In this document: piece after piece, positions 451 to 38,154 of the stretch
How the letters are laid out: each line of letters starts with the position of its first letter
Position numbering within the stretch: position 1 is the stretch's first letter
Assembly (NCBI GenBank): GCA_051000715.1
Contig: JBPCOB010000133.1
Coordinates: 1-44,690 of the forward strand
Direction: 5' to 3'
Origin: Mycobacteriales bacterium
GTDB lineage: Bacteria > Actinomycetota > Actinomycetes > JALYNC01
DNA: 44,690 nt
The notes under the pieces: model-generated
What the model saw: only the letters and a program-made list of their open reading frames with translations
Told to the model about the DNA's origin: nothing
Database searches by the model: none
Program-made: the position numbers and the translations under genes

Positions 451-1137
451 ATGACCATCATTGAGATTCCCACCCCCCCCGGCATGGGTCGGTCGCTGAT
501 CGACCACGACCCCCGCAACCGCGACTATCCGACCCGGGGTGTCCTGCACGCCGTCGATGCGCCGCTGGTCGAGAAGACCTGGCGGCGCGGCCACGCCTAC
601 GACCAAGGCCGGACTTCGCAGTGCGTCGCGTTCACCGGCAAGGGCATGCTGAACACGGCGCCGACCTCGGCGGCGGCACCGTACCGAACTCGGGCGGCCT
701 ACTCGACGGACGACTTCTACGCGGGCGCGCAGGCTGCGGACGAGTGGCCCGGACAGTCACCGGACTACGAGGGCACCAGCGCCAAGGGCCTGTGCGCCTA
801 CCTAACCACGCAAGGCCTCATCACCGAGTACCGCTGGTGTTTCGGTGTCGACGACGTGCTCCGCACCGTCTCCCACCATGGCTCGGTGGGTTGCGGCACC
901 TGGTGGTCAAGGTCGATGTTCACCCCCGGAGAGCGTGGTCTGCTCACGGTTGACGGCGAGTGGATCGGGGGTCACGAGTGGGAGATCGTCGGCGTCGACC
1001 CGCATCGTGAGGAGGTCATCGCCTGCAATTCGTGGAGCCTGTCGTGGGGGGACCGGGGACATTTCCGGCTCACCTTCGCCGACCTCGACCGGCTGCTGAC
1101 TGCGGACGGCGACGCGTTCACGCTGGTGCCCGCATGA
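451..1137 (+). CDS. papain-like (C1-type motifs) cysteine peptidase, probable cell-wall peptidase module of the lysis system
   Basis: ORF 451..1137. Motifs are DQGRTSQC (Gln-x5-Cys nucleophile), GGHEWEIVG (His) and CNSWSLSWGDRGHF (Asn-Ser-Trp), in papain order. RBS gaaagggg lies upstream. Confidence 0.65.
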   Translation: MTIIEIPTPPGMGRSLIDHDPRNRDYPTRGVLHAVDAPLVEKTWRRGHAYDQGRTSQCVAFTGKGMLNTAPTSAAAPYRTRAAYSTDDFYAGAQAADEWPGQSPDYEGTSAKGLCAYLTTQGLITEYRWCFGVDDVLRTVSHHGSVGCGTWWSRSMFTPGERGLLTVDGEWIGGHEWEIVGVDPHREEVIACNSWSLSWGDRGHFRLTFADLDRLLTADGDAFTLVPA

Positions 1138-2066: not shown

Positions 2067-2579
2067 TCATGCCATCACCCGGTCGTACTCGGCGAGGGTC
2101 GCGGCGAGGATCGTGTCCATGTCGAGCCCGGCGCCGCTGGCTGCCGCGCTTGCGTAAACGGCCGCGTTGGTGCCGAGGGCATTGCTGCCCCCGTGCTCGC
2201 CACTCTCGACTGCCACCTGGGCTGCGATGACGGCTTCGCGATCGGCCCCGACCGGGGCGCCGATACGGCTCCACGACTCGCGCTTGGTTGCGTCCTTGGC
2301 GTCACCGCACTCCTCGGCGGTGGCCTCGCCGCGGGTGAAAGCTTCGGCGGTGGAGATGGCGGCCTCGCACACGACCGCGTAGTCGGCGGGCACCAGGTGG
2401 AGCACCTGGCGGGCTGCGCAAGCACCGAGTGCGGTGTCGAGCTTGGCGGCCAGCTTGCGGTTGGAGCGGCCGGCGGGCACTGAGGTGGTTTCGGCGCGGG
2501 CGAGGAGGCCGGCGTCGGTGGCGTGCTTGGCGAGGACTGCGATCACCGGGTGAGTGGTGGTGGTGGCTGTGGTGGTCAT
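2067..2579 (-). CDS. Ala-rich helical hypothetical protein (170 aa), first gene of antisense operon
   Basis: ORF 2067..2579 minus with AAGGAG RBS. The pattern ARQVLHLVP...AISTAEAFTRGEAT..EE faintly resembles helical immunity-type proteins. That resemblance is unverified recollection only. Confidence 0.55.
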   Translation of the reverse strand: MTTTATTTTHPVIAVLAKHATDAGLLARAETTSVPAGRSNRKLAAKLDTALGACAARQVLHLVPADYAVVCEAAISTAEAFTRGEATAEECGDAKDATKRESWSRIGAPVGADREAVIAAQVAVESGEHGGSNALGTNAAVYASAAASGAGLDMDTILAATLAEYDRVMA

Positions 2580-2644: not shown

Positions 2645-2685
2645 CACTCTGCGAACAACTTTCTTGAGAATCTTCTGGAGGCATC

Positions 2686-4371
2686 ATGACCCTGCACGCG
2701 CTGACCGCGAACATCCGCGTCGACCTGCCCGACCGGGATGCCGAGACCGAGATCCGCCGCGACCTCGCTTTCGGCCCGGATGTGCTGCTGCTCCAGGAGG
2801 TCGGGGGCCGCGCCGCGGTCTTCGACCGAATTGCCGGCGAGGGCGTCTACGGCGAGGTGCGCTTCGGCCGACAGTCGGGCATCGGGGGCGGGGCGGCTAG
2901 GAACAACGTGATCCTCTACCGCCGGGCACGGCTCGGGCTCACCGACCGGGAGAGCACGTTGCTGCACCGGAGCATCCTCTTCCGGAGCGCGACCCGGTAC
3001 CTGACCTCCGCGCTGTTCCTCGACCAGCAGACCGGGCGACCGGTCCCGGTCAACAACGTGCACATGGTGCCGCACGCCGACACGAGCGCCGGCTGGCTGA
3101 CCAGCTACCCGCGCCGCCGCCTCGTCATCGCCGCGCTCGATGTCATCACCGCGAAGATCGCCGTGCAGAAGGCATCCGGCGCTCTGGTGATCACCGGCGG
3201 CGACTGGAACAACAACGACAAGGCGGACGCCGGTCAGGACAAGGCGAACGTGCAGGCTCGCCTTGGTGCGGTGGGCGCACGCTCCAACTTCGACGTGCTC
3301 GGGACCGCCGCCTACACCGGCACCCACGGCCGCGACTTCTACGACTCGATCTACGTCACCGGCCCGGCGGCGTTCGCCCGGGAGACCGTGCATCCGCGTG
3401 GCCTGTCCGACCATCACGCCGTGTCCGTCTGGCTCGAAGTGGCACCCATCAAGCCCGCACCGGTCCCGGCTGCATCTGTCCCCGTCGTCACACCCGCACC
3501 TACCCCGACCGCCGCACCGAAGGAGCCCCTCATGGCCGCACGCATCGACGGCATCGACTTGTCCCACTGGCAGAGCGGCGCGCTCGACTTCAACGCCGCG
3601 AAGCGCGCCGGCGTCCGCTTCGTGTCCCACAAGGCCTCCGAGGGGACCGACTACCGGGATGCGAAGTACGGGCAGCGTCGCCGTGAATGCGCGGCGGCCG
3701 GTGTCCCGTTCGGTGCCTACCACTTCGCCCGGCCCAGCCGGTCCGGTGGCACCGCACAGGCGAAGTTCTTCCTCTCGGTCGCCGACCCGAAGCCCGGCGA
3801 CCTGCGGCCCATGCTCGACCTCGAAGACCGCGGAGGTCTGTCCATCGGGCCACTGAGCGGATGGGTCGGTGACTTCGTGGCCGAGGTCGTCCGCCAGATC
3901 GGTGTGCCGCCGTTCATCTACACGTCTTTCGACCTGGATGACACTTTCGACTGCCCGCTGTGGGTGGCGCGGTACTCGAACGCCATGTCGGCCCCGCACA
4001 TCCCGGCGCCGTGGAAGCGGTACACCATCTGGCAGTTCTCGGACGGTGTCTACGGTCACCCGTCGACGGTGCCCGGCATCGGTAAGTGCGACATCAACAC
4101 GCTGAACACGTCCGACCCGGCGGCGCTGGTGAAGGCGTTCATCCTCACTGCTCCCGCCGCACCCGAGCCCGCCGTCGTCGAGCCGAAGCCCGCACTGACC
4201 CCCACTCAGGAGCCCACCGTGCCGAACAACCGGATCACCCAGGCCCGCGGCCACCTCGCGACCGCCCTGAAGCTGCTCGACGACGCCCAGAGCATCGAGC
4301 ACCGCACCGGCTGGGTGCGGATCGCCACCGGTGTCATCCGCACCGGCTACAACCGACTCCCCAGGAGCTGA
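2686..4371 (+). CDS. endolysin: N-terminal endonuclease/exonuclease/phosphatase (EEP) domain fused to GH25 muramidase, plus Pro/Ala linker and C-terminal helical region
   Basis: EEP motifs in order: LTANIRV, LLLQEV, NVHMV, GGDWN, LSDHHAV. GH25 motifs: GIDLSHWQ, FVSHKASEGTDYRD, GAYHFARP, MLDLED. GGAGG RBS lies before ATG 2686. Confidence 0.8.
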   Translation: MTLHALTANIRVDLPDRDAETEIRRDLAFGPDVLLLQEVGGRAAVFDRIAGEGVYGEVRFGRQSGIGGGAARNNVILYRRARLGLTDRESTLLHRSILFRSATRYLTSALFLDQQTGRPVPVNNVHMVPHADTSAGWLTSYPRRRLVIAALDVITAKIAVQKASGALVITGGDWNNNDKADAGQDKANVQARLGAVGARSNFDVLGTAAYTGTHGRDFYDSIYVTGPAAFARETVHPRGLSDHHAVSVWLEVAPIKPAPVPAASVPVVTPAPTPTAAPKEPLMAARIDGIDLSHWQSGALDFNAAKRAGVRFVSHKASEGTDYRDAKYGQRRRECAAAGVPFGAYHFARPSRSGGTAQAKFFLSVADPKPGDLRPMLDLEDRGGLSIGPLSGWVGDFVAEVVRQIGVPPFIYTSFDLDDTFDCPLWVARYSNAMSAPHIPAPWKRYTIWQFSDGVYGHPSTVPGIGKCDINTLNTSDPAALVKAFILTAPAAPEPAVVEPKPALTPTQEPTVPNNRITQARGHLATALKLLDDAQSIEHRTGWVRIATGVIRTGYNRLPRS

Positions 4372-4372
4372 C

Positions 4373-4744
4373 ATGACGATCACGGACGTGCAGACCGACG
4401 CCAGGGACGGCACGACCCATCCCTATGGGGTCCGCGTCGGCGACCCAGTCCACTACTGGCGCGCCGACGCCCCTCCGCTGTCGGAGACGTACGAGGCCCC
4501 CGCCTGCTGGCACGGCCTGGTCCTGGGATTCTCCTACGACGATGCGCGCTCGATCTGGCTCGCTGACCTCGTGGTGGTGGACCCTCACGAGGGCTCGCTG
4601 CACCTTGTCCGAGCAGCTCCGCAGTCAGAGTCGACCGCCTCAACCGTGCGCATCGGCGGCGAGTGCGGCGAGCCGTCGTGGGGGGTCGGCGCTTCGTGGC
4701 ATCGACCAATCACGGGCCACCTACGAACCAATCTGAGGAGCTGA
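4373..4744 (+). CDS. hypothetical protein (123 aa) between lysin and holin
   Basis: ATG 4373 follows AGGAG and overlaps the lysin stop region. Same frame as ORF 4331..4744. Confidence 0.6.
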   Translation: MTITDVQTDARDGTTHPYGVRVGDPVHYWRADAPPLSETYEAPACWHGLVLGFSYDDARSIWLADLVVVDPHEGSLHLVRAAPQSESTASTVRIGGECGEPSWGVGASWHRPITGHLRTNLRS

Positions 4745-4746
4745 CC

Positions 4747-4950
4747 ATGAACGTCATTCGCACCGAGCCCGCGCTTGTTGTCGCCGTCGTCCTCGCCGTC
4801 ATCGGCGTGGCGTCGGCGTTCGGCCTCGGCCTTACCGATGGGCAGGCGGATGCGATCGTGGCTGTCGTCGGCGCGGTTCTCGCGCTCGTCGGTGGCGCGG
4901 TCACCCGCACCCAGGTGACACCGGCCGCCAAGCACGCAAGGGAGAACTGA
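4747..4950 (+). CDS. putative holin (67 aa, two transmembrane segments)
   Basis: ATG 4747 after GAGGAG. Hydrophobic segments are ALVVAVVLAVIGVASAFGLGL and AIVAVVGAVLALVGGAV, followed by a charged C-terminus. Position is next to the lysin. Confidence 0.6.
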   Translation: MNVIRTEPALVVAVVLAVIGVASAFGLGLTDGQADAIVAVVGAVLALVGGAVTRTQVTPAAKHAREN

Positions 4951-5302: not shown

Positions 5303-7294
5303 GTGGCAACCGTCACGAAGACGTTCTCGTTCGCGGCGGGCGTAGAAAGTTTCACTGCCTCCTCCGACCGTGTTGCCGTAAGCACGTGGGATGGGGCTGT
5401 CGGCAATCCGCCGGGGTCACTGAGGTCGAGCGTAGCTGGGCGCAGCGCGTCTGGGTCGACGGACCGGTACACCGCCGGCTTCACGTGGATGGACCTCAAC
5501 GTCCCGGCTGGGGCCACGGTTACCGGGATACGGCTGCTGTCTCTGTCCACACGATGCACCGACTACACGATCGGCAGCACCACGCGTGTCGGACAGTGCT
5601 ACCTATATCTGTCTGGTTTTGGCAACATGGAGCTAGTCCCTGGTCGCAGTGTTGCCGGTGTCGACACGGGATGGCAGGTCACGCCGGCTCAAGCGCTGGT
5701 GGCGATTCCGGTGACGTCGCCGTCCACTGACAGCATCACAGTTGGTTTGTTCTCCGACCTCGCCACCGGCGCGAGCGCCAAGGCGGTCGTCACCGTCTAC
5801 GTTGACGAGCTGGTCCTGGAGACCACCTACACGCCGGCGGCCGCGACCGGGGAGACACACACGGCGACCGGGACGCGCGCACCCGCGCTGGTGGCCGCCC
5901 GCAGCACGGCGGCTACCCGCCGACCTGCGGCCCCCGTCGCAGCGGCCGTTGTCGTCGCGTCGGTGGCACGGGCCAGCATCCGCCCCCGCGTGGCCAGTGG
6001 CATCGCGACAGCCACCACCCGGGTCGCGGCGACCACCACCCGGACGAGGGCGAGCATCAGCGTCGCCGCGGCCTCGGCAACCAGTCAGCAGGTCGTCAAC
6101 CACCCCGTTACCGTCCGGGGCGGCGCGTCGACGGCCGCTAGTGCTGTCGTCACCACCCAGCATCCGGCTACCGTCGCTGCCACTGCCACCACCGACGGCC
6201 GGGCCGTCTCGGGTAGCAGCCGCCCGTCGAGCCGCCGCGCTTCCGCAACCGGGACCGCGCGCGCCACGACCACCAGCAGCCGGAGTCGACCGGTCACTGG
6301 ACCCGCAGCCGTTGGCGCACGGACCACAGCCGCGAGCACCCGGGCGTACGTGGCCACCGTCCCCGCGACGGCCGTAGCCCGCACCGCAGCGAGCAGCAGC
6401 CGCCCGAGGCCCGTCACCGCCCCAGCGACCACCACGGCACGCGCTAGCGTCACCACGGCCCGGACTCCCCCCTCGACCGCACCAGCGACGGTCACCGCCC
6501 GCGCCGGACTCACCACCGCCCACCCCCTGGCAGCCACCGCGCCAGCCACCGCGGTCGCCTCGGCCACTGCCACCAGTAGCCGACCAGTCACCGTCGCAGC
6601 CACCGGCACCGCCTCCGCTTCGGCGACCGTCGCCCGGGTTACCACCGACCATCCGGTCACCGGCCGCGCCGGAGTCGTCGCCACTACACGAGCCGTCACG
6701 GCCACCACCCGGACGTCGTCGAGCACCGCGCGTGCTACTACCGGCGCGGGCGTCGACAGTGCCAGCGACCGCCCCCGGACAGTCACCATCGCGGCCACCG
6801 TCAGCACCCGAGCCACGGCGAGCAGCAGCCGCCCCACAACCAGTACCGCGTCAGCCACGGCTACTAGCCGCGCCGTCACTGTCAGCGCCGCCACCCCGCC
6901 CGAAACTCACGCCACAACCGGACACGCCACCGCCACAGCCGCGGCCACGCACAGCCTGACCACGGTGCGAGTGGTCACCGGCACCGCACCAGCCCGGCTC
7001 GTCGCCGCGACCAGCACACTGACGACCCGCCTAGCCCTCGGCACCGCACCCGCAGTCACCCGCGGTAACGCCGTCACCGCCGCGGCCCCGCTGTACCGGC
7101 CGGCGCTCCACCCCCGAGCGACACTCTCATCCAACCGGACGGACGCGAACATGCGCATCACTCACCCGAGGGCAACCCTGACACCCAATCAGACGGACGC
7201 CATTCTGCGCGACGACACCACGGCGGCCACCCTCGCCCCCAACCAGACAGATGCCATCATTACCGACCACCACCCGAAGGCGGAACTCGCATGA
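5303..7294 (+). CDS. 663-aa protein: ~185-aa globular N-terminal domain plus ~430-aa Ala/Thr/Arg/Ser/Val low-complexity region and C-terminal tandem repeats
   Basis: ORF 5303..7294 with GTG start. Third-position C/G bias supports the plus frame over the mirror ORFs on the minus strand. SSRP(R)PVT-type units recur. Confidence 0.7.
   Translation: MATVTKTFSFAAGVESFTASSDRVAVSTWDGAVGNPPGSLRSSVAGRSASGSTDRYTAGFTWMDLNVPAGATVTGIRLLSLSTRCTDYTIGSTTRVGQCYLYLSGFGNMELVPGRSVAGVDTGWQVTPAQALVAIPVTSPSTDSITVGLFSDLATGASAKAVVTVYVDELVLETTYTPAAATGETHTATGTRAPALVAARSTAATRRPAAPVAAAVVVASVARASIRPRVASGIATATTRVAATTTRTRASISVAAASATSQQVVNHPVTVRGGASTAASAVVTTQHPATVAATATTDGRAVSGSSRPSSRRASATGTARATTTSSRSRPVTGPAAVGARTTAASTRAYVATVPATAVARTAASSSRPRPVTAPATTTARASVTTARTPPSTAPATVTARAGLTTAHPLAATAPATAVASATATSSRPVTVAATGTASASATVARVTTDHPVTGRAGVVATTRAVTATTRTSSSTARATTGAGVDSASDRPRTVTIAATVSTRATASSSRPTTSTASATATSRAVTVSAATPPETHATTGHATATAAATHSLTTVRVVTGTAPARLVAATSTLTTRLALGTAPAVTRGNAVTAAAPLYRPALHPRATLSSNRTDANMRITHPRATLTPNQTDAILRDDTTAATLAPNQTDAIITDHHPKAELA
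7109..7270 (+). repeat. three imperfect ~17-18-codon tandem repeats at the C-terminus of the 663-aa protein
   Basis: HPRATLSSNRTDANMRIT / HPRATLTPNQTDAILRDDT / TAATLAPNQTDAIITDHHP. Confidence 0.8.
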
Positions 7295-7804: not shown

Positions 7805-8206
7805 TCAGGAAGCGTCGCAGGAGACAATGGCGTACTGCCCAGATGCAGTGTTCTTGGCGACCTGCTTGCCGTCGACCGTCACCGAGCATGTGATCGTGCC
7901 TCGGCCCTGGTTCTGCGCAGACAGGCTGTAGACCGAGAAGAACTCGTCCTTCACGGTGAACGCCTTGGTCCAGGGCAGCTTCTGGCCGTTCTCCTGGGAG
8001 ATGTTCGACCCGTCAGGCGTAGTGGAGAATGTCATGTCGGCACGCTTGGCCGTCCCACCGATCTTGTAGATGACCTTCGTCGTTGCGCTATCGGATCCAC
8101 CGCCGGACCCACCGCCACCACTGAGCGAGACCGCGACCACGACCACGATGATGACCACGACCAGGGCCACGATGCCCAGGCAGCCGACCTTGAAGATGCG
8201 TCCCAT
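7805..8206 (-). CDS. MmpS-like small membrane protein (N-terminal TM anchor plus beta-rich ectodomain with two Cys)
   Basis: ORF 7805..8206 minus. Features are the TM segment GCLGIVALVVVIIVVVVAV, a Gly/Ser linker, then VIYKIGGTAKRADMTF...QKLPWTKAF...ITCSVTVDGKQVAK...AIVSC, a typical MmpS pattern. Confidence 0.6.
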   Translation of the reverse strand: MGRIFKVGCLGIVALVVVIIVVVVAVSLSGGGGSGGGSDSATTKVIYKIGGTAKRADMTFSTTPDGSNISQENGQKLPWTKAFTVKDEFFSVYSLSAQNQGRGTITCSVTVDGKQVAKNTASGQYAIVSCDAS

Positions 8207-8706: not shown

Positions 8707-8712
8707 TATAAT
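8707..8712 (+). promoter_or_regulatory. perfect TATAAT -10 box, candidate leaderless promoter for recombinase 2
   Basis: TATAAT lies at 8707-8712, and the ATG at 8720 lies 7-8 nt downstream, which is the geometry of actinobacterial leaderless transcripts. No convincing -35 was found. Confidence 0.4.
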
Positions 8713-8719
8713 GGTGATT

Positions 8720-9529
8720 ATGGGAATAGGTGAGCCCGTAGACCGTCTCGTCGCCGACTGGCTGGACTACCTCGCGCATGAACGCAACCTGTCTGCGAAC
8801 ACCGTCGCCACCTACGCCCGGACGCTGCGCACCCTTTCCGGCGCGGACACCGCGACACGCGAAGACGTGGAGGCGTGGGCGCGTTCGCGCTCGCACCTGT
8901 CGCCTGCCACCCGGAACAACGAACTCTCGGCTGTTCGGAAGTTCTACCAGTGGTGTCGCATCTGGGGGCACCGGCCGGAGACCGACGATCCGACCCTGCG
9001 CCTGCTCGGGCCGAAGATGGCCAGCGGTCTGCCCCGGCCGATCTCAAGAGACGACCTGAACCGGCTGCTCGACACGTTGAAGGGCGACCTGCGCCGCACG
9101 GTCTGCCTCGGCGCCTATGCCGGGCTACGCGTCAGCGAGGCCGCGGCGCAGGTGTGGGAGGATGTCGACGTCGAGAACCGTCGCGTCCGCGTCACCGGAA
9201 AGGGACAGAAGACTCGACTAGTGGGGCTCTCGTCGCTGTTGCTCGACTCGCTGCTGCCTGACACTGGCGGCAGCGTCGTCACGGCTGGGGAGACGCCCTA
9301 CACGGCGGGAACGTTGCAGCGGAAGGTCAACCGGGCAATCGAGGCGGCAGGTGTGGACGTGACCTATCACCAGCTCCGGCACCGGTTCGGCACAGTAGCG
9401 CTGGGTGCGTCGGGCAACCTGCTCGCGGTGTCGCGGGCGATGGGTCACTCATCTCCGGCGACGACGGCGATCTACGCGGCCACCTCCGACTCTGATCTCG
9501 ACGTGATCGCCGAAGCCGTCACCCGTTAG
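8720..9529 (+). CDS. tyrosine recombinase 2 (XerC/D-like, ~270 aa; alternative start 8711)
   Basis: ORF 8711..9529. The catalytic set is present: AGLRVSE (Arg), GKGQKTR (Lys), HQLRHRF (His-x-x-Arg), GHSS (His), AIYA (Tyr). There is a SAM-like N-domain WLDYLAHERNLSANTV. Confidence 0.8.
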   Translation: MGIGEPVDRLVADWLDYLAHERNLSANTVATYARTLRTLSGADTATREDVEAWARSRSHLSPATRNNELSAVRKFYQWCRIWGHRPETDDPTLRLLGPKMASGLPRPISRDDLNRLLDTLKGDLRRTVCLGAYAGLRVSEAAAQVWEDVDVENRRVRVTGKGQKTRLVGLSSLLLDSLLPDTGGSVVTAGETPYTAGTLQRKVNRAIEAAGVDVTYHQLRHRFGTVALGASGNLLAVSRAMGHSSPATTAIYAATSDSDLDVIAEAVTR

Positions 9530-10338
9530 GCGGCGGCCGCTAGCATCGCGGCACGCACCGACTCGTCCGGGATCGCGACGTAGATCGCCGTGGTCTCCGG
9601 CTTCGCATGCCCGAGCAGCTCCTGGACGGCGCGCAGGTCGCGGGTGCCCGCGTAGGAGACGGTCGCGCACCGGTGCCTCAGGGTGTGCGTGGTCAGGTCA
9701 TCGGGCAGGCACCGGGTGACAAGCTTCCCAAGATGGTGCGGCGTCAGGTGCCCGCCGTGCGTGGACGGGAACAGCCAGCCCGGTGCGTGCTCGGTGATGA
9801 GCGCGGCGAGCTCGTCGGTCAGCGGCACCATCCGCACGTGCCCGCCCTTGCCGGTCACCCGCAGGCTCGACCCGAGCAGGTCGGGCTCCACGTGCTCGGT
9901 GCGGGTCCGGGCGATCTCGGCGCGCCGCAGGCCGCACTGCCCGGCGAGCAGGACCGCCAGCCGCACCCGTTCGTCGGCGATGGCCAGGGCGAGCCGGTAG
10001 GCGGCTTCCGGCGCCGGTCGTGGCTTCCCGCGGGGGACCCGGACCGGTGGCAGCAGGTGCGCCGGCGATGTGGTGACCCGTCCGGTGGCGGTCGCCCATC
10101 TGTAGAAGGCGCGCAGCGACCCTCGGTAGGCGCGCCGGGTGTTCGGTGCCCAGTCGTGGCCGGCGAGCCACGTCACGAGCTCGTCGAAGGTCAGTGTGGC
10201 CGGCCCTGTGCTCGTCTCCCGTGCGAGCCGGGTCAGGTGGTAGGTGCGTAGTCCGATGGTGGTCTCGGGGGAGCCGGTCGCGCGCAGGTAGTTCTCCCAC
10301 GCCGCGATGTGCTCGGTCCAGGTGCGTGTAGGTGTCAT
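9526..10338 (-). CDS. int: tyrosine integrase (recombinase 1), co-oriented with the repressor, C-terminus ...MLAAAA
   Basis: ORF 9526..10338 minus. Motifs are GLRRAEI (Arg), GKGGHVR (Lys), HTLRHRC, LGHAKP, AIYV (Tyr). Its stop overlaps the stop of recombinase 2 (TTAG at 9526-9529). Confidence 0.8.
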   Translation of the reverse strand: MTPTRTWTEHIAAWENYLRATGSPETTIGLRTYHLTRLARETSTGPATLTFDELVTWLAGHDWAPNTRRAYRGSLRAFYRWATATGRVTTSPAHLLPPVRVPRGKPRPAPEAAYRLALAIADERVRLAVLLAGQCGLRRAEIARTRTEHVEPDLLGSSLRVTGKGGHVRMVPLTDELAALITEHAPGWLFPSTHGGHLTPHHLGKLVTRCLPDDLTTHTLRHRCATVSYAGTRDLRAVQELLGHAKPETTAIYVAIPDESVRAAMLAAAA

Positions 10339-11280: not shown

Positions 11281-11681
11281 ACAACCACGCGAAGCGCTGC
11301 ATCAAGAACCTCGAAGCGCTCGGCTTCTATCGCGATCACGACGCGCAGACTCGCGGACTCGCCTACCGGCACCCGAACGCCCCCGACCAGGTGCTCAAAG
11401 TGTTCGACCAGATGACGGACTCCACGATCACGTCCGTCATTCGCAAGGCGAACAAGATCGCGGACACCGGCTGGTCCGGCCCACGGCAGCCCGAGACGGT
11501 CAAAGAGCGTGCGCGGGTCACGCACTCCAAGAACAAGTCGCAATGGCAGCGCGAGGACGAGGCGCGCCGAGCACGCGCAGAGGTGGCCGAGCGTGCACAT
11601 GAGGACCGAAGTCGGACCGAAGTCGAGACGGAACATCGCCGCGAAGTTGAAGATCTCATGCAGCCGGGTTACGGCCGATGA
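11277..11681 (+). CDS. hypothetical protein with Arg/Glu-rich C-terminal helix (134 aa)
   Basis: ORF 11277..11681 with ATGA overlaps on both sides. Confidence 0.6.
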   Translation: MNNHAKRCIKNLEALGFYRDHDAQTRGLAYRHPNAPDQVLKVFDQMTDSTITSVIRKANKIADTGWSGPRQPETVKERARVTHSKNKSQWQREDEARRARAEVAERAHEDRSRTEVETEHRREVEDLMQPGYGR

Positions 11682-12604
11682 GCGCCGAGGTCGCCGTCAC
11701 TCCATCGACCGACCTGGCCATCGAGCAGATGGCGCGCATCGACCAGCGCATCGACAGCCATGAGGGCGAAGCACTGCGGGATCGCTGGGAGTTCGGTCGG
11801 CACATGCTCGCCGCACGTGACGGAGCGGGCCGGCTGCCGAACGGCTACCTGTCGGCACTGGTGGGACGCACCGGGAAGAGCCGCGCCGAGTTGAAGTTCA
11901 GGGCACAGTTCGCAGCTACCTACGCCACGGAGGCAGAACTGGCTAACGCGTTAGCCAGTTCCAACTCATGGCGGGGAATCGTCGCAACGCTCAAGAAGGC
12001 CAAGGATGCCGAGGACAACATCATCTCCGCGCCCGAGCCAGCCGCCGGAGGACTGGTCGGGACCATCGTCGCGGACCCGCCGTGGTCGTACGGCAACACG
12101 TCCACCCGTGGTGCCGCCGAGAACCACTACCGGACGATGAGCATTGAGGAGTTGTGCGACCTCGGCGTGGCCCGCGAGCGTGCTGCTGCACAGTCGCATC
12201 TCTATCTCTGGTCCACCGCCGGGCACCTATCCGAAGCCTTCAAGGTGATGGCGGCATGGGGGTTCACCTACAAGACCTATCTCGTCTGGGTCAAGCCGCA
12301 GATGGGGATGGGTAACTACTTCCGAGTCTCCACCGAACTGGTGCTGTTCGGCGTCAAAGGTGGGCTGCGAACCACCGAGCGGAACATCAAGAACTACTTC
12401 ACCGAGCCGCGGCAGAAGCACTCCGCCAAGCCGCTCTCGTTCCAGGACATCGTTGCCAGAACCAGCCCCGGACCCTACCTAGAGCTGTTCGCCCGCTGTC
12501 AGAAAGACGGGCTGTTCGCCGGCTGCCAGAAAGACGGGCTGTTCGCCGGCTGTCTGTGTTCCAAGTGTCGCCTTGGCTGGGAGACGTGGGGGAATCAGTC
12601 ATGA
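11678..12604 (+). CDS. MT-A70 family N6-adenine DNA methyltransferase with ~130-aa N-terminal extension
   Basis: Motifs are IVADPPWSY (DPPW catalytic motif), HLYLW and ELVLFG, with ...YLELFAR...GWETWGNQ at the C-terminus. Confidence 0.8.
   Translation: MSAEVAVTPSTDLAIEQMARIDQRIDSHEGEALRDRWEFGRHMLAARDGAGRLPNGYLSALVGRTGKSRAELKFRAQFAATYATEAELANALASSNSWRGIVATLKKAKDAEDNIISAPEPAAGGLVGTIVADPPWSYGNTSTRGAAENHYRTMSIEELCDLGVARERAAAQSHLYLWSTAGHLSEAFKVMAAWGFTYKTYLVWVKPQMGMGNYFRVSTELVLFGVKGGLRTTERNIKNYFTEPRQKHSAKPLSFQDIVARTSPGPYLELFARCQKDGLFAGCQKDGLFAGCLCSKCRLGWETWGNQS
12495..12548 (+). repeat. 27-bp tandem duplication (2 full units, partial units on both flanks) inside the methylase 3' end
   Basis: gctgtcagaaagacgggctgttcgccg / gctgccagaaagacgggctgttcgccg, with 1 mismatch. 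It encodes CQKDGLFAG twice. Confidence 0.9.
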
Positions 12605-14083: not shown

Positions 14084-14262
14084 GCGCGACCTGGGTCCCC
14101 GGCGATCCGCTGCACGGGCGCGGTGAGTACGCCGGCTATCTGTTCAACTTCCGTGAGACTCGGGCCGCCGAAGAATGCCACTGCGATGACGCGGCGTCCT
14201 GGCCCGACCCGAAAGCCTGGCAGCGGGTCGACGGGCGCGACGACATCCGGGGCCGGCTATGA
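14080..14262 (+). CDS. hypothetical protein (60 aa)
   Basis: ATG 14080 with ATGA overlap. Frame of ORF 14050..14262. Confidence 0.5.
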   Translation: MSATWVPGDPLHGRGEYAGYLFNFRETRAAEECHCDDAASWPDPKAWQRVDGRDDIRGRL

Positions 14263-14564
14263 GCATCCGGCAACCGACCACGTTCACCGACCGGCGCGCG
14301 ACGAGTCCCCTCGACGACTTCTTGTCTGCGATCAGCGGCGAGCCGTGGATGCGGCAAGCCGTCTGCGCGTCGACCGGTGGCGCTGACGACTGGTTCCCCA
14401 GCCAAGGCGAGGCGAACAGGGCCGCGAAGCGCGTGTGCCGCGGCTGTCCGGTGCAGCAGGAGTGCCTCGACTACGCGCTGCGCCGAGGCGAGGTCCACTT
14501 CGGCATCTACGGCGGCACCACACCCACGACCAGGCAGCGAATGAGACGGGAGCGTGGAGCATGA
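14259..14564 (+). CDS. WhiB-family Fe-S transcription factor
   Basis: Four Cys in the WhiB arrangement: QAVCAS...DDWFP...AKRVCRGCPVQQECLDYAL, followed by a basic C-terminus. Confidence 0.8.
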   Translation: MSIRQPTTFTDRRATSPLDDFLSAISGEPWMRQAVCASTGGADDWFPSQGEANRAAKRVCRGCPVQQECLDYALRRGEVHFGIYGGTTPTTRQRMRRERGA

Positions 14565-17876: not shown

Positions 17877-18025
17877 GCAGCCACGAAGGCCACCTCGAAC
17901 TGGGCCGCGCTCTCGGACCAGAGGTGTTCTGGGCCGTCTGCGAATGCGGCTGGATCGGGTTAGCACGGTCCGAGGAAGCGCCGGCATGGGATGACCACCG
18001 CGCTCATAAGGTGCGTGCGCTGTGA
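17873..18025 (+). CDS. hypothetical protein (50 aa)
   Basis: ATG 17873 with overlap. Frame of ORF 17792..18025. Confidence 0.45.
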   Translation: MSSHEGHLELGRALGPEVFWAVCECGWIGLARSEEAPAWDDHRAHKVRAL

Positions 18026-18219
18026 GCCGCGCCGAGATCATGGCCGAGGTCGTCGCCCGGCTCGAAGCCGAACGGATGCAGTCGTTGCCGCGACGAATGG
18101 CGCCCGCACAATGCGACCCGGTGCCCGACCTGACACCCGAGCAGCAGGCCGAGAATCTGCGGACGCTCATGGAAGCTACCGGCGGCGAGGCCGACCTGTG
18201 GGCGAGGAGGCGGTTGTGA
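18022..18219 (+). CDS. hypothetical protein (65 aa)
   Basis: ORF 18022..18219 with GTG start. Confidence 0.45.
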   Translation: MSRAEIMAEVVARLEAERMQSLPRRMAPAQCDPVPDLTPEQQAENLRTLMEATGGEADLWARRRL

Positions 18220-19358
18220 ACGCGCCCTATTACGCCGACGAGTCGGTCCAGTTGTACCACGGTGACTGTCTCGACATCCTCCGCTCCGACATTCTCGGCT
18301 ACGAGCACTCTCTCGGCTATTTCCCACCATTGATCCCCGGCAGCAGTATCGATTCGGTAGTCACAGACCCGCCGTACGGGCTGGAGTTCATGGGCAAGGA
18401 GTGGGACGGCGCCAACGGGTTCCGCCGCTCGCTCAACCCGGCCGACGTAGAGCGGGACAACCCATTCGGGCGCACATCGAAGACCTCCCCCGAGTACCGC
18501 GCTGGTCAGACGTTCGGTCTCTGGTGCCTCGCGTGGTCGGAGGAGTGTCTGCGTGTGCTCAAGCCGGGCGGCCACATGCTCGCCTTCGGTGGCACCCGCA
18601 CCAGCCACCGTCTCGCCTGCGCCATCGAGGACGCCGGCTTCGAGATCCGCGACAGCATCGCCTACTTACACGCCACTGGAGGTCAGCAAACCGATATACT
18701 TACCGAGTGGAGAAAGTGGACTGTAAGTACGAGATATGCGGGGGTCAGATTCTCGGACGCGCCGCCCGGCGGTTCTGCTCCCGAGCCTGTTCTGCTCGCA
18801 ACCAGTCTCGAAAACTCACCTGCGTCTGCAATCATTGCGGGACTCAATTCCAACGAAGCCCGTCACACCGACGCGGACAACTGGCGTTCTGCTCTGTCGA
18901 GTGCCGGCGCCAGTACTACGGCGTCGAAGGCCCTTGTGACCATTGCGGGACATCCACCAGGAAGCCGAGGTCCAACACCGGATACAACGGCTTCTTCTGC
19001 TCACAGCGGTGCATGGGACTGGCTCGACGCAAACATCATGGCCAGACTCAAGGCCGGAACAGCCCTGAGGATATGGCTTGGAAGCAAGCCATCTACAAAG
19101 CCGGCGGCTACCGCTGCGCTGTGTGCGGCACTGACCGACGACTTGAAGCTCATCACGTGCGCTCAGTCCGAGACTTTCCAGAGCTACGACACGACCTCTC
19201 AAATGGTGTGTGTCTCTGCCACGACTGTCACTACTACGGCGTACACGGCGGCGCACCTAATTTCATTCACGGCCGCTACTCTCGCAAGCCAGGGGGGTGA
19301 TGCCACGGAAAGTCAGTCCGGTCCCCTCGCATGGGTCTACGGATCTGGCTTTCCGTGA
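18216..19358 (+). CDS. N4/N6 DNA methyltransferase (beta-class order), N-terminal fragment: catalytic DPPY half, 669-nt foreign insert read through in frame, then WVYGSGFP and a TGA
   Basis: GTG 18216 follows GAGGAGG. Motifs are VVTDPPYGLEFMGKEWD, LAFGGTRT and AIEDAGFEIRDSIA (ends 18662). The insert spans 18663-19331. WVYGSGFP is at 19332-19355 and the stop at 19356-19358. Confidence 0.65.
   Translation: MNAPYYADESVQLYHGDCLDILRSDILGYEHSLGYFPPLIPGSSIDSVVTDPPYGLEFMGKEWDGANGFRRSLNPADVERDNPFGRTSKTSPEYRAGQTFGLWCLAWSEECLRVLKPGGHMLAFGGTRTSHRLACAIEDAGFEIRDSIAYLHATGGQQTDILTEWRKWTVSTRYAGVRFSDAPPGGSAPEPVLLATSLENSPASAIIAGLNSNEARHTDADNWRSALSSAGASTTASKALVTIAGHPPGSRGPTPDTTASSAHSGAWDWLDANIMARLKAGTALRIWLGSKPSTKPAATAALCAALTDDLKLITCAQSETFQSYDTTSQMVCVSATTVTTTAYTAAHLISFTAATLASQGGDATESQSGPLAWVYGSGFP
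18663..19331 (+). mobile_element. HNH homing-endonuclease cassette inserted in the methyltransferase gene
   Basis: A 669-nt block interrupts the conserved segment ...EIRDSIA | WVYGSGFP.... By my count the first 80 nt are ~49 percent G+C, against roughly two-thirds elsewhere by eye. It carries an HNH ORF in another frame. Confidence 0.65.
18707..19300 (+). CDS. HNH endonuclease with three N-terminal CxxC...FCSxxC zinc-ribbon repeats
   Basis: Frame of ORF 18401..19300, with GTG starts at 18707 or 18716. Repeats are CKYEICGG..FCSRAC, CVCNHCG..FCSVEC and CDHCG..FCSQRC. The HNH motif is YRCAVCG..LEAHH...NGVCLCHDCH. Confidence 0.7.
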   Translation: MEKVDCKYEICGGQILGRAARRFCSRACSARNQSRKLTCVCNHCGTQFQRSPSHRRGQLAFCSVECRRQYYGVEGPCDHCGTSTRKPRSNTGYNGFFCSQRCMGLARRKHHGQTQGRNSPEDMAWKQAIYKAGGYRCAVCGTDRRLEAHHVRSVRDFPELRHDLSNGVCLCHDCHYYGVHGGAPNFIHGRYSRKPGG

Positions 19359-19370
19359 AAGTCGAAGTCG

Positions 19371-20342
19371 TTGGACGTGGGCCGGGCGATCGACAAGGCG
19401 GCGGGGGTTGAGCGGGAGGTCGTGGGGCAACGCGTTGCTACTGGGACTGCTCGCAAGTCCACGACTCACACCGGCATCGGCGCAGCGGTAAGCAACAAGG
19501 CCGAACCGCGTGACTACATCGACACGGTTGTCAACCTGACCGCCCCTGCCACCCCCGACGCCGAACGCTGGCAGGGCTGGGGCACTGCGCTGAAGCCCGC
19601 CCACGAGCCGATCGTGGTCGCCCGGAAGCCGCTGTCCGGGAACGTCGCCGCGAACGTGCTGGCGCACGGGACCGGGGCGCTGAACATCGACGGGTGCCGG
19701 GTGGCTGGCGACGAGGACGGGTCGCGTAACCGGCCCGCATCGCGGCTCGGGAGCAGTGACACCTACGCGCAGGACGAGTGGACACGCACCGCCGTTGTCG
19801 AACGGCAGGACACGACAGGCAAAGGTCGCTGGCCCGCGAACGTGGTCCTCGACGAGTCGCAGGCAGCGGTGCTCGATGCGATGAGCGGACAGACTCGCTC
19901 GTCGGGCTTCTTCACGTTTGGCGAGGGCGATTTCAACGGCCCCGCCTCGGTCAACATAAACCGCGAGGGTTACACCTCAGGCCAGTATGACGACCAAGGT
20001 GGCGCATCCCGATTCTTCTACGTCGCCAAGGCCGGCGCCTCAGAGCGACCCCGCGTCAACGGAATCAGTCACCCGACGACAAAACCTCTGACCCTCATGC
20101 GGTACCTCGCGCGACTCGTCACCCCACCCGGCGGCACGGTTCTCGAACCCTTCGCGGGCAGCGGAACCACCGTCGAGGCGTGCATCCTCGAAGGCTTCCG
20201 GTGCATCGCCATCGAGCGCGAGGCCGACTACCTGCCGTTGATCGTGCAGCGCATCACTCGACGCCGCGACCCCGTGGCTGCCGTGAAGTCGGCGGGCACT
20301 GACGGCGGACTGTTCGACCTACTCGACGGCGGTGTCGCCTGA
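19371..20342 (+). CDS. N4/N6 DNA methyltransferase, C-terminal fragment (target-recognition region plus AdoMet-binding FxGxG half)
   Basis: Same frame as 18216..19358. Motifs are LDVGRAIDKAAGVEREVVG, WQGWGTALKPAHEPIVVARKP, GRWPANV, HPTTKPL and VLEPFAGSGTT. The only starts are TTG 19371 or GTG 19377, and no clear RBS is present. Confidence 0.6.
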   Translation: MDVGRAIDKAAGVEREVVGQRVATGTARKSTTHTGIGAAVSNKAEPRDYIDTVVNLTAPATPDAERWQGWGTALKPAHEPIVVARKPLSGNVAANVLAHGTGALNIDGCRVAGDEDGSRNRPASRLGSSDTYAQDEWTRTAVVERQDTTGKGRWPANVVLDESQAAVLDAMSGQTRSSGFFTFGEGDFNGPASVNINREGYTSGQYDDQGGASRFFYVAKAGASERPRVNGISHPTTKPLTLMRYLARLVTPPGGTVLEPFAGSGTTVEACILEGFRCIAIEREADYLPLIVQRITRRRDPVAAVKSAGTDGGLFDLLDGGVA

Positions 20343-36400: not shown

Positions 36401-38154
36401 TCAACCGGCTGGTCAACGCCGTCAACACGGTGGCCAAGTCACTGGGCGTCTCATCGCCGCTGCACACGTTGGGCATGGTCGGGGGCGGTAGCAAGTCGAC
36501 CGGCCACGCAGCATCCAACCCGGGCGGGTCGAGCGCGCAGCGCAAGAACGCGTTCGCGGCCGGTGGCGTCCTGCCTGGTTTCACGCCGGGCCGCGACGTG
36601 CACCACTACACCTCCCCGACCGGCGGCGCACTGTCGCTGTCGGGTGGTGAGGCGTTCATGGTCCCGGAGTGGACTCGTGCGGTCGGTGGTGCCGGTGCGG
36701 TGAAGACGATGAACGCGGCCGCTCGCTACGGCCGGAAGATGAGTTTCTCCAAGGGCGGCGTGATGCCTGCTTATGGCCGCACCACGTATGGCGGTAAGAC
36801 CGTCGACTGGCTCACCAAGTATGCTCTCATGGCTACTAGTAGGCGCCTGGGTTACGGGCCGTCTCTCACTCAGGGTTCGTACAACCCGGGCGGTGTGTCC
36901 GCCTCTGGCGGCACCCATGATGGTGGCGGTGTAGTCGACCTTTCCGCGTCGGACGGGCTGCGCAAGGTCCGCGCGTTGCGTATGACCGGGTTCGCTGCTT
37001 GGCGCAGGCCGACCATCCCTGGCCTGTGGAGTAAGCACATTCACGCTGTCCTCATCAGCAACGCGTTGTTGTCCGGCGCCGCCCGCGCACAAGTGGGCGC
37101 CTATCGTGCGCACAGGGACGGCCTCGCCGGCAACGCTTACGACCCGACGTGGCGGCCCAACTCGATCCCTTGGTTCACGACGAGGACTGACGCGACCCAG
37201 CCCGGGTGGCGGCACCTGTCTGGGCAGGGTCTCGCTGGCATCGGAGCGCTGATTGCCGCCCGCCTTGCGGGCGGCAAGGCTCCGTCCGGTGGGGCGGTGC
37301 CTAAGGGGTTCGCGGGCGCGTCCGGCACTGGCGAAGCCACCGCGAGCGGTGGCGGGTCGCGCTTCAACCCGCTGTCGGCAACCCGTAATCTGTTGGACCG
37401 GATCGGCGGCACGCTGGGCAGGGTGCCTGGTGGTGCGGTGGGCGCGATGCTCGCCAAAGGTACGTTCAAGCTGCTCAGTGGTGGGGCGACGAAGTGGGCT
37501 GGCGGCCAGGCGGTGAACGCGGCTGCGGGTATCGCGACGCATGGGATGCCAGGTCTGCTCCAGGTGGCGAAGCTGTTCCATAGCCTGTCCGGTTCGTCTC
37601 CACAGCAGACGGTGCGGTCCATGATGGGTGCCTACGGGTGGGGTGCGAACCAGTGGCCGAGCCTGAATGCGCTAGTCCAAGGCGAGTCGGGCTGGAACCC
37701 GTCCGCCCGGAACCCGTACTCGTCTGCGGCAGGGCTATTTCAGAAGATGACGAGCCTGCATGGCGCGTTGGAGAAGACTGTCGCCGGACAGGCCGGGTGG
37801 GGCTTGGGTTACATCAAGAGCTCCTACGGGTCGCCGGCGAACGCGTACGCGAAGTGGAGTTCGCGTAACCCGCACTGGTACGACGACGGCGGGGAGGCCC
37901 GGGGCATCGGCTTCATGCCGAAGAACATAATCAACCCCGAGCGGGTGCTCTCACCTCGTCAGACCGACCTGCACGACCGGCAGACAGTTGCATTGGAGCG
38001 GTTGGCGGCGCGCGGGGGTAGCGGGAACGGCGGGACTGCGGTGTTCAACCTCTACGACGCCGACGGCGCGCTGATCGGCCGGATGCGTGGGGTGGCTCGT
38101 GATGAGGTCGCCGCCGACCGTGACTTCGCCGGCACCCGGGGGCGTGCCCGGTGA
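33454..38154 (+). CDS. tape measure protein (1566 aa) with embedded LAS/M15-like metallopeptidase motif and transglycosylase-like motif
   Basis: ORF 33454..38154. Motifs are GGTHDGGGVVDL...WSKHIHAV (H-x6-D...HxH, about 36890-37060) and WPSLNALVQGESGWNPSARNPYSSAAGLFQ (about 37650-37745). There are TM-like segments mid-protein. Confidence 0.85.
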   Translation: MARTLGSAFVQIRPDTSSFGPELKKGVNSADSAKVGEAAGTKMGAGVTSKLGHAAKVGGLLIGGAAVAGAYAFTKRAVGLEQDFGRTMNQLQAATDTPKRGMKSLSDLAIKMGADTVFSASDASQAMLELAKGGMNAAQIKSGALKSSLTLAAAGGIDMADAASTMGNAMHAFNIPAGQSATVAAALAGAANASSASVGSVALGLQQAGTVAADAGFTIQETTGAIAALSNAGIAGSDAGTSLKTMFSRLQPTTKSARDAFEAFGLSSYQSSGSMKELATKGIKPASTSIDDVSNAIRKYLVRSGEATAGTAKLEAKTKDMLYTTGFMSNAFVKQNGEFKSLGAISGVLKDKFSGMSDSERAAALNTLFGSDARRAATVLTNEGTKGLAKYVKATSDKTAAERMGHAAMKGTAGAMEAMKGSIETTSLAWGMAIKPLTMFAAHVVTDIANRATPIIQDLGVKLKTFLKGVDLSGGIKKAMGSVDIGAIFARIKTSVAGVDWASIGAGLSKLFARIKTAVTGINWAGVGSDIGAIFARIKTAVTGINWASIGAGMSKIFARDWGSIGTDMAKIGASLRGVDWSALPKAFGKSVSDSISVFAVVIGFAARHVGTLARAMPFLIAAFVAYKAAQAASSLVDLAHLPITAAMLVSNVALARSNGRLATQMAITNGVERTTMVTRARSAVATVASAVAQRVAAGASRVWALATRTATAATNTDTLATIRQRIATAASAVAQRVAAGATRLWAIATRSQTAATNTTTAATIRQRVATVASTVATKVAAVATKGMAIAQRVLNLAMRANPIGLVITALLLLGTGLVVAYKKSETFRKIVDGALSAVTNAGEATVGWFTNHLVPFFTTTIPKAFRSTVTWVKGHWPVILAIITGPIGLATLFIAKHMDKITEKFKAVGDWVRGGFNKSWSGLTNILTSPVQTARDVFGSLLGSGGKVRTIFSGAVSAIGGIWSRLQNLMAAPVNWIIKNVINRLVNAVNTVAKSLGVSSPLHTLGMVGGGSKSTGHAASNPGGSSAQRKNAFAAGGVLPGFTPGRDVHHYTSPTGGALSLSGGEAFMVPEWTRAVGGAGAVKTMNAAARYGRKMSFSKGGVMPAYGRTTYGGKTVDWLTKYALMATSRRLGYGPSLTQGSYNPGGVSASGGTHDGGGVVDLSASDGLRKVRALRMTGFAAWRRPTIPGLWSKHIHAVLISNALLSGAARAQVGAYRAHRDGLAGNAYDPTWRPNSIPWFTTRTDATQPGWRHLSGQGLAGIGALIAARLAGGKAPSGGAVPKGFAGASGTGEATASGGGSRFNPLSATRNLLDRIGGTLGRVPGGAVGAMLAKGTFKLLSGGATKWAGGQAVNAAAGIATHGMPGLLQVAKLFHSLSGSSPQQTVRSMMGAYGWGANQWPSLNALVQGESGWNPSARNPYSSAAGLFQKMTSLHGALEKTVAGQAGWGLGYIKSSYGSPANAYAKWSSRNPHWYDDGGEARGIGFMPKNIINPERVLSPRQTDLHDRQTVALERLAARGGSGNGGTAVFNLYDADGALIGRMRGVARDEVAADRDFAGTRGRAR
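34900..35160 (+). repeat. tandem coding repeats in the tape measure (IGAIFARIKTAVTGINWASIGAG units)
   Basis: gacatcggcgcgattttcgcgcggatcaagac occurs at 34903 and 35041. gcgcggatcaagacggctgtgaccgggatcaactggg occurs at about 34990 and 35059. Confidence 0.85.
35515..35830 (+). repeat. ~126-bp tandem coding repeat, about 2.5 copies, in the tape measure
   Basis: The units are VASAVAQRVAAGASRVWALATRTATAATNTDTLATIRQRIAT and AASAVAQRVAAGATRLWAIATRSQTAATNTTTAATIRQRVAT, followed by a partial copy. Confidence 0.85.

Follow-up and report, generated by a model that had tools for sequence, protein, structure and literature searches.

The catalytic modules usually catalogued in phage endolysins are glycosidases, transglycosylases, amidases and peptidases, to which LysB esterases are added for mycolata hosts. 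LysB, a cutinase-like serine carboxyl-esterase of phages of such hosts, provides actinophages with a second lytic activity that is not directed at peptidoglycan. Actinobacteriophage endolysins of the LysA type combine a peptidase with an amidase, GH19, GH25 or transglycosylase domain and a wall-binding domain. The endolysin described here is encoded by the 44,690 bp stretch of DNA that was analysed (the window), a whole phage genome with 67% GC. It resembles the LysA type in its gene position next to a holin, its GH25 muramidase domain, its Pro/Ala linkers, its two catalytic modules and its lack of a signal peptide. It differs in its second module, which is an endonuclease/exonuclease/phosphatase (EEP) domain instead of a peptidase or amidase, falls outside the PHROG endolysin families and is found in none of the deposited phages. 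The protein is a modular endolysin of known type whose second catalytic module represents a new class, and this module has an unexpected metagenomic breadth.

Phage phosphodiesterases that assist peptidoglycan hydrolases by acting on other components of the Gram-positive wall are already known or have been proposed. Tail-associated lysins of Firmicutes phages contain phosphodiesterases of the GDPD type (PF03009), for which an action on teichoic acid is proposed (PMC10194240), and a tail protein of the Thermobifida phage P1312 is a metallophosphatase termed "phosphodiesterase" (PMC4569894). The likeness to the window lysin is one of concept: these proteins have other folds (GDPD, metallophosphatase) and belong to the virion or to entry, whereas in the lysin an EEP domain is joined directly to a muramidase. 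An assignment of this domain to the GDPD teichoic-acid phosphodiesterases was rejected, as Pfam searches of the lysin found no PF03009 match and the fold is that of EEP enzymes. An assignment to the LysB type (cutinase-like alpha/beta-hydrolases with a Ser-Asp-His triad) was likewise dropped, with no match to such a family.

Closer in fold are three EEP proteins of Bacteroides, the uncharacterised 3g6s and 3mpr as well as 4c1r, which are among the best profile matches. They are only about 15-18% identical, belong to another phylum and lack a lysozyme partner, and the deposition of 4c1r names a phosphatase, i.e., a monoesterase. The nucleic-acid enzymes TDP2, LINE-1 endonuclease, DNase I and ExoIII share fold and catalytic residues with the lysin domain, but at 13-19% identity and outside the context of a lysis enzyme. 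In the TDP2 and LINE-1 matches shown, R104, R143 and the THG motif of the lysin are not aligned.

Architecture of the lysin and identity of its domains

The initial annotation had described the lysin as an EEP domain fused to a GH25 muramidase, and this is borne out by Pfam matches to both domains and by the alignment of the catalytic residues. PF03372 (Exo_endo_phos) matches residues 6-243 with 31.0 bits against a gathering cut-off of 24.5 (E 2.8e-7), and the N-domain covers the whole profile (positions 1-225 of 225). The EEP motifs quoted earlier are in place (TAN 7-9, LLLQEV 34-39, NVHMV 124-128, GGDWN 171-175, SDHH 241-244), as are those of the muramidase (GIDLSHWQ 289-296, KASEG 316-320, YHFARP 345-350, LDLED 377-381) and the Pro/Ala/Val linker that had been placed between the two domains.

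The catalytic set of the N-domain consists of N9, E38 (in LQE), H126, D173 and N175 (GDWN), D220, and D242 and H243 (SDH), all of which sit on canonical catalytic positions in hidden Markov model (HMM) alignments to 3g6s and a LINE-1 endonuclease. Each of them occurs unchanged in 55-56 of the 56 family sequences, apart from N9, which is present in 52 with the other four gapped. R104 (in SATRY), R143, T213 and G215 (THG) are specific to the family and are conserved along with the catalytic residues in essentially all 56 sequences.

An EEP fold of the N-domain is supported by the checks that had been proposed earlier, namely profile searches, structure prediction and the alignment of the catalytic residues. 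The AlphaFold model of residues 1-254 reaches a predicted local distance difference test score (pLDDT) of 79 and a predicted template modelling (TM) score of 0.84, although just one of the five models computed was confident. With this model Foldseek retrieved TDP2 as the top match, and also 3mpr, 3g6s and Nocturnin (E ~5e-14, TM ~0.72). A profile search of solved structures ranked 3g6s first (E 4.5e-8), with LINE-1 endonucleases (1e-6) between it and 3mpr (4.3e-4) and 4c1r (4.6e-4). The other EEPs of nuclease type follow with TDP2 at 3.5e-3, ExoIII at 0.03 and DNase I at about 1, and the affinity to sphingomyelinase C is not significant in this search (1zwx, 2ddr and 2uyr at E 0.4-0.65 only). 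These values do not place the domain clearly in any nuclease subfamily. Judged from its sequence and its model, the N-domain is a member of the EEP superfamily, whose fold is a beta-sandwich flanked by helices. It is predicted to be active, as the full catalytic set is kept.

The muramidase part is assigned by PF01183 (Glyco_hydro_25) on residues 290-453 (E 4.7e-31) and by endolysin PHROGs 291, 6219 and 6745, and it aligns with the structures 2x8r and 1jfx at E values of about 1e-23 to 1e-25. D291, D378 and E380 correspond to D9, D98 and E100 of Cellosyl (1jfx), and with these D/DxE residues aligned the GH25 domain is predicted to be active as well.

A further linker and a tail had also been described. 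Both exist, but the tail comprises some 47-56 residues and not about 70. This C-terminal part is very basic (isoelectric point, pI, 11.3 for residues 506-561) and is 46% identical over 61 amino acids (aa) to the C-terminus of P0092, a lysin with a GH25 domain only, with which it shares GWV.I..G.IR.GYNRLP. Partial matches were found in three further proteins (P0129, P0132, P0138), and no Pfam match at E <= 10 except a chance one to CENP-T_N (E 0.09). Pfam searches detected no recognised cell-wall-binding domain anywhere in the lysin, and the tail is possibly a new module for targeting to the wall or the membrane.

The lysin open reading frame (ORF) carries the top coding signal of its region, with a GC content of 0.89 at third codon positions (GC3), and its Shine-Dalgarno motif comes after a gap of about 106 nucleotides that follows the divergent gene 2067..2579(-). 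The N-terminus is not hydrophobic, and a check of the sequence found no signal peptide. From architecture and context the protein appears to be a canonical holin-dependent endolysin.

Distribution of the EEP domain and its fusion to wall hydrolases

EEP domains are not a recognised lysin module, as had been presumed earlier. Neither the PHROGs nor, by tblastn, 50,697 deposited phage records contain a match to the N-domain, and megablast of the whole gene against the same records gave none. The domain has no NCBIfam match either, and the protein is a singleton in its 90%-identity cluster, seen on a single NCBI contig. A report of an EEP-fold (PF03372) endolysin module was not found in the literature, where some phrase searches are likely to have missed the slash-written name of the superfamily.

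Relatives of the domain nevertheless exist. When 1.84 billion representative proteins were searched exhaustively with phmmer, no more than 50 relatives emerged at E <= 1e-3, of which 18 remain at E <= 1e-10, with the window protein as the only form of 561 aa. A word-indexed protein search with the family profile returned at least seven proteins. Pattern scans, from which alignment A2 was excluded as too diverse, gave no locus in IMG/VR, two in GTDB genomes and one in JGI metagenomes, all of them weak. Most relatives are stand-alone proteins of 250-280 aa on phage contigs. About one third of these carry a signal peptide or membrane anchor (P0002, P0009 and P0017 are signal-anchored), which implies that they act outside the cytoplasm. 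Their gene contexts are mixed, comprising the structural module, the vicinity of DNA-metabolism genes (P0057 adjoins exonuclease and methylase genes) and positions after tail genes. A structure search of BFVD also returned EEP-fold proteins in a few cultured phages, A0A2Z4QBQ6 of the Streptomyces phage Yosif and W6PNE5, a "tail fiber" of the Citrobacter phage CR8; they are too distant for detection by sequence, and their roles appear unstudied.

The fusion of an EEP domain to a wall hydrolase recurs beyond the window lysin, a point that the initial annotation had missed. P0023 (442 aa) combines an Amidase_2 endolysin domain (PF01510 E 1.9e-15; phrog_670 E 1.5e-38) with an EEP domain of the same subfamily. 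On its phage contig, genes for head and tail-fibre proteins adjoin it, and a holin-like ORF with two transmembrane segments comes after it. Further fusions emerged when the GH25 and tail part of the lysin was used as query and the 120 closest homologues (41-65% identity) were screened. Seven of them match the EEP family HMM directly at their C-terminus (P0070 at 2e-18 and P0060 at 5e-18, for example), and iteration raised the number with a C-terminal EEP-like domain to about 30, compared with 17 that have a CHAP domain as partner. The domain order is opposite to that of the window lysin. These proteins are phage-encoded, near holin, WhiB, terminase, portal or tail genes.

Since iterative searches can drift, the iterated set was subjected to three checks. 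Pfam finds PF03372 in only 3 of 38 cases. In hhalign, 21 non-seed C-terminal sequences align with the EEP family over 229 columns (probability 96.4%, E 1.4e-9). The motifs of the group (GTE, H, GDxN, TGHGxID, TDH) correspond to those of the family, with the first-strand Asn (the N9 position) replaced by Ser and the other catalytic positions kept. A Pfam-negative C-terminal domain was modelled with a pLDDT of 94.7 and agreement of all five models, and its top Foldseek matches are the same EEP structures. The two C-terminal types P0078_C and P0060_C gave no match in the deposited phage records.

In BLAST clustering, stand-alone EEPs of phages are the nearest neighbours of the window domain (P0005 at 45% identity), and the C-terminal domains of the other GH25 lysins barely resemble it; at least four to six separate EEP lineages are fused, in both orders. 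These lineages, the two domain orders and the two classes of hydrolase imply several independent fusion events. We interpret such repeated fusion in both orders as an indication of repeated selection for a physical coupling to wall hydrolases. For about a quarter of one clade of GH25 lysins, a large "unannotated" domain turns out to be EEP-fold, which corrects a blind spot of annotation.

Other arrangements were met with in the same searches. P0038 (516 aa) is a fusion of an EEP domain with a pilin of a type IV secretion system (TrbC/VirB2-like). P0011 (431 aa; locus L009, 241-1536) joins an EEP domain to a C-terminal domain of 170 aa with motifs reminiscent of lysozymes and soluble lytic transglycosylases (EQETGGG...GVGPLQLT). 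Its reading as a third class of hydrolase was dropped, as the resemblance is by eye only and Pfam, PHROG, PDB and phage tblastn searches gave no match. Several EEP or GH25-EEP genes belong to head-morphogenesis modules and not to a lysis cassette of classical type (L001 3351-4184, L018 4903-6276, L019 6001-7482). They are flanked by portal and capsid genes, by capsid and adaptor genes, or by terminase and portal genes, and some of them could encode packaged or virion-associated enzymes.

Possible roles of the EEP domain

The architecture of the lysin and the recurrence of the fusion are solid; the substrate of the EEP domain is what we infer. Our favoured reading, to which we give a probability of about 0.45, is a bifunctional holin-dependent endolysin in which the EEP domain acts as a phosphodiesterase on a wall-attached polymer, of teichoic-acid type or its linkage unit, and thereby aids the muramidase. 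The holin would first open the membrane, after which the GH25 domain would cleave the bonds between N-acetylmuramic acid (MurNAc) and N-acetylglucosamine (GlcNAc) in peptidoglycan. The EEP domain, as a metal-dependent phosphodiesterase, would cut phosphodiester bonds of a wall-attached anionic polymer. Its target may be a teichoic-acid-type or sugar-phosphate polymer, or the phosphodiester linkage unit of that polymer on O6 of MurNAc. MurNAc is the sugar whose glycosidic bond is cut by GH25 enzymes, and the substrate bond of Amidase_2 enzymes is attached to it as well. Removal of the polymer would deprive the glycan strands of their shield and hasten the collapse of the wall, and the short basic tail may direct the enzyme there. 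In favour of this reading are the intact catalytic residues of both domains, the position of the gene in a lysis cassette and the recurrent fusion of EEP domains to peptidoglycan hydrolases. Phosphorylated wall glycans as EEP substrates have a precedent in 4c1r, deposited as a mannosyl-6-phosphatase, and the presence of 4c1r among the profile matches, together with the exported EEP relatives, hints at a wall polymer. The phage phosphodiesterases of other folds that are known or proposed in wall-degrading proteins (PMC10194240, PMC4569894) point in the same direction.

Several observations weigh against a wall polymer as substrate. The top structural neighbours, TDP2 and Nocturnin, are nucleic-acid enzymes, and LINE-1 endonucleases score about equally with the glycan-phosphatase-like EEPs in the profile search. 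Two relatives stand in settings of another kind, P0057 beside an exonuclease and a methylase and P0038 joined to the secretion-system pilin, and the N-domain model was confident in a single run out of five. In the large C-terminal group the exchange of Asn for Ser may imply a different chemistry.

Many EEPs are nucleases, and the structural neighbours, the LINE-1 scores and the settings of P0057 and P0038 would equally suit a non-specific DNase or RNase (DNase I, ExoIII or Xds-like) that is freed with the lysin. Such an enzyme would clear viscous host or extracellular DNA for the dispersal of progeny, or degrade host DNA late. The EEP domain is basic (pI 9.3), and secreted EEP nucleases are known, e.g., Xds of Vibrio (PMC12833820). 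We consider this unlikely, as there is no obvious reason why a nuclease should be tethered repeatedly, and in both orders, to muramidases and amidases. An active DNase on a cytoplasmic endolysin without signal peptide would moreover endanger the replicating phage DNA, and the TDP2 match, at 13-19% identity and TM 0.6-0.7, may reflect the compact EEP core and not particular traits in common. A lipid phosphodiesterase resembling phospholipase C or sphingomyelinase, which would attack phospholipids or the phosphatidylinositol anchors of actinobacterial lipoglycans and so complete the disruption of the envelope, seems less probable still. Neutral sphingomyelinases have the EEP fold, the signal-anchored relatives (P0002, P0009, P0017) are located at the membrane and the very basic tail could bind anionic lipids; however, the sphingomyelinase matches (1zwx, 2ddr) are weak and not significant, and no hydrophobic hairpin for membrane insertion is evident in the sequence. 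In typical Gram-positive lysis, a membrane permeabilised by a holin is not known to require a further lipase.

The initial annotation had suggested a possible mycolata host and an EEP domain that might substitute for LysB, and it is true that no LysB is found: searches for cutinase, esterase, PE-PPE and LysB families returned nothing in the lysin or any large window ORF tested. The domain would then cut the linker between arabinogalactan and peptidoglycan, which is a phosphodiester on MurNAc, and detach the mycomembrane. We regard this as very improbable. Nocardioides/Nocardioidaceae and Spirillospora are the sources of the nearest GH25 homologues that carry a name, and the window terminase is about 55% identical to those of phages of Arthrobacter; none of these bacteria is known to have mycolic acids. 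The host is therefore probably a non-mycolate actinobacterium, for which the absence of LysB is expected. EEP enzymes hydrolyse phosphoesters, LysB a carboxyl ester, so that fold, chemistry and probable host all differ. The MmpS-like protein that had been taken to favour mycolata is a match below threshold, WhiB occurs across actinobacteria and accompanies GH25-EEP lysins in other phages too, and no phage of Mycobacterium, Gordonia or Rhodococcus among the deposited records has this EEP domain. An EEP domain devoid of catalysis, with a role in wall binding or regulation alone, is just as improbable. Endolysins often have non-catalytic binding domains, and none is recognised in the window lysin, but all seven or eight catalytic positions show strict conservation among 56 relatives, with identities as low as about 25%, and the divergent C-terminal group keeps them too, except that Ser takes the place of N9. 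Such strict conservation is a signature of selection for catalysis.

A bifunctional endolysin with an EEP phosphodiesterase would have a wider meaning. We tentatively suggest that EEP phosphodiesterases constitute a previously unrecognised class of endolysin module, widespread in uncultured actinobacterial phages and mostly invisible to Pfam, that may cleave phosphodiester-linked wall glycopolymers or the MurNAc-6-phosphate linkage. A module of phosphoesterase fold, gained independently several times by muramidases and amidases, would be a new activity class and would extend the repertoire of glycosidases, amidases and peptidases by "de-shielding", an activity not directed at peptidoglycan. 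It would point to wall-linked phosphodiester polymers as an unappreciated barrier to lysis, and would supply parts for engineered lysins as well as reagents for dissecting actinobacterial wall glycopolymers.

Genome context

The window encodes terminase, portal, ClpP-like prohead protease, capsid, tape-measure and tail genes; tRNA genes were not found in it. An actinobacterial host, as proposed earlier, fits the GC content, the WhiB-like gene and the actinophage-like terminase matches. The accompanying statement that WhiB and MmpS-like proteins are present holds for the WhiB-like gene, whereas the MmpS match stays below its cut-off (Table 1).

Table 1. Positions in the window of the lysin gene, its parts and other genes mentioned in the text
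Feature	Position	Strand	Basis or match
Papain-like cysteine peptidase	451..1137	+	phrog_16701 peptidase, E 1.4e-39
Shine-Dalgarno GGAGG, four bases before the lysin ATG at 2686	2677..2681	+	read from sequence
Endolysin gene, 561 aa, ATG start	2686..4371	+	ORF list, Pfam, GC3
EEP domain, residues 1-252	2686..3441	+	PF03372, PDB profile match, Foldseek
Pro/Ala/Val-rich linker 1, residues 253-284	3442..3537	+	read from sequence
GH25 muramidase domain, residues 285-478	3538..4119	+	PF01183, PHROGs, PDB 2x8r and 1jfx
Pro/Ala/Glu-rich linker 2, residues 479-514	4120..4227	+	read from sequence
Basic C-terminal tail, residues 515-561	4228..4368	+	shared with C-terminus of P0092
ORF between lysin and holin, about 123 aa from ATG at 4373	4373..4744	+	no Pfam or PHROG match
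Holin, 67 aa, ATG at 4747, two hydrophobic (transmembrane) segments	4747..4950	+	phrog_9752 E 1.5e-10, phrog_526
Small membrane-anchored MmpS-like (Mycobact_memb) protein	7805..8206	-	19.2 vs 21 bits, sub-threshold
WhiB-like gene	~14259-14564		translation

The papain-like peptidase upstream of the lysin has homologues in Gordonia phages that are annotated as "cysteine protease" or "putative lysin". Between it and the lysin lie one HNH gene and three genes on the minus strand. The peptidase may represent a separate or detached lysis or wall-peptidase component, its membership in the lysis system being uncertain.

Just past the holin and a Gp80-like fibre gene lies a Thr/Ala/Arg-rich ORF of 663 aa (5303-7294, +) with no Pfam or PHROG match, a local GC skew of -0.18, large antisense ORFs and only trivial tandem repeats, which may encode a low-complexity fibre or surface protein. 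The MmpS-like gene adjoins the integrase region and may encode a surface protein expressed in lysogeny. This region contains two tyrosine-recombinase genes (8711-9529, +, and 9526-10338, -; Phage_integrase E 1.7e-19 and 1.5e-18) that overlap convergently, and such paired integrase/Xer-like genes are unusual in a phage of 45 kb. Three DNA methyltransferase genes on the plus strand (11678-12604, 17991-19358 and 19371-20342; one MT-A70 and two N6_N4_Mtase) suggest a heavy investment in anti-restriction. Finally, a tail protein (38151-40172, +) with an N-terminal carbohydrate-binding domain of the CBM96 family (E 3.5e-17) hints at a wall polysaccharide as receptor.

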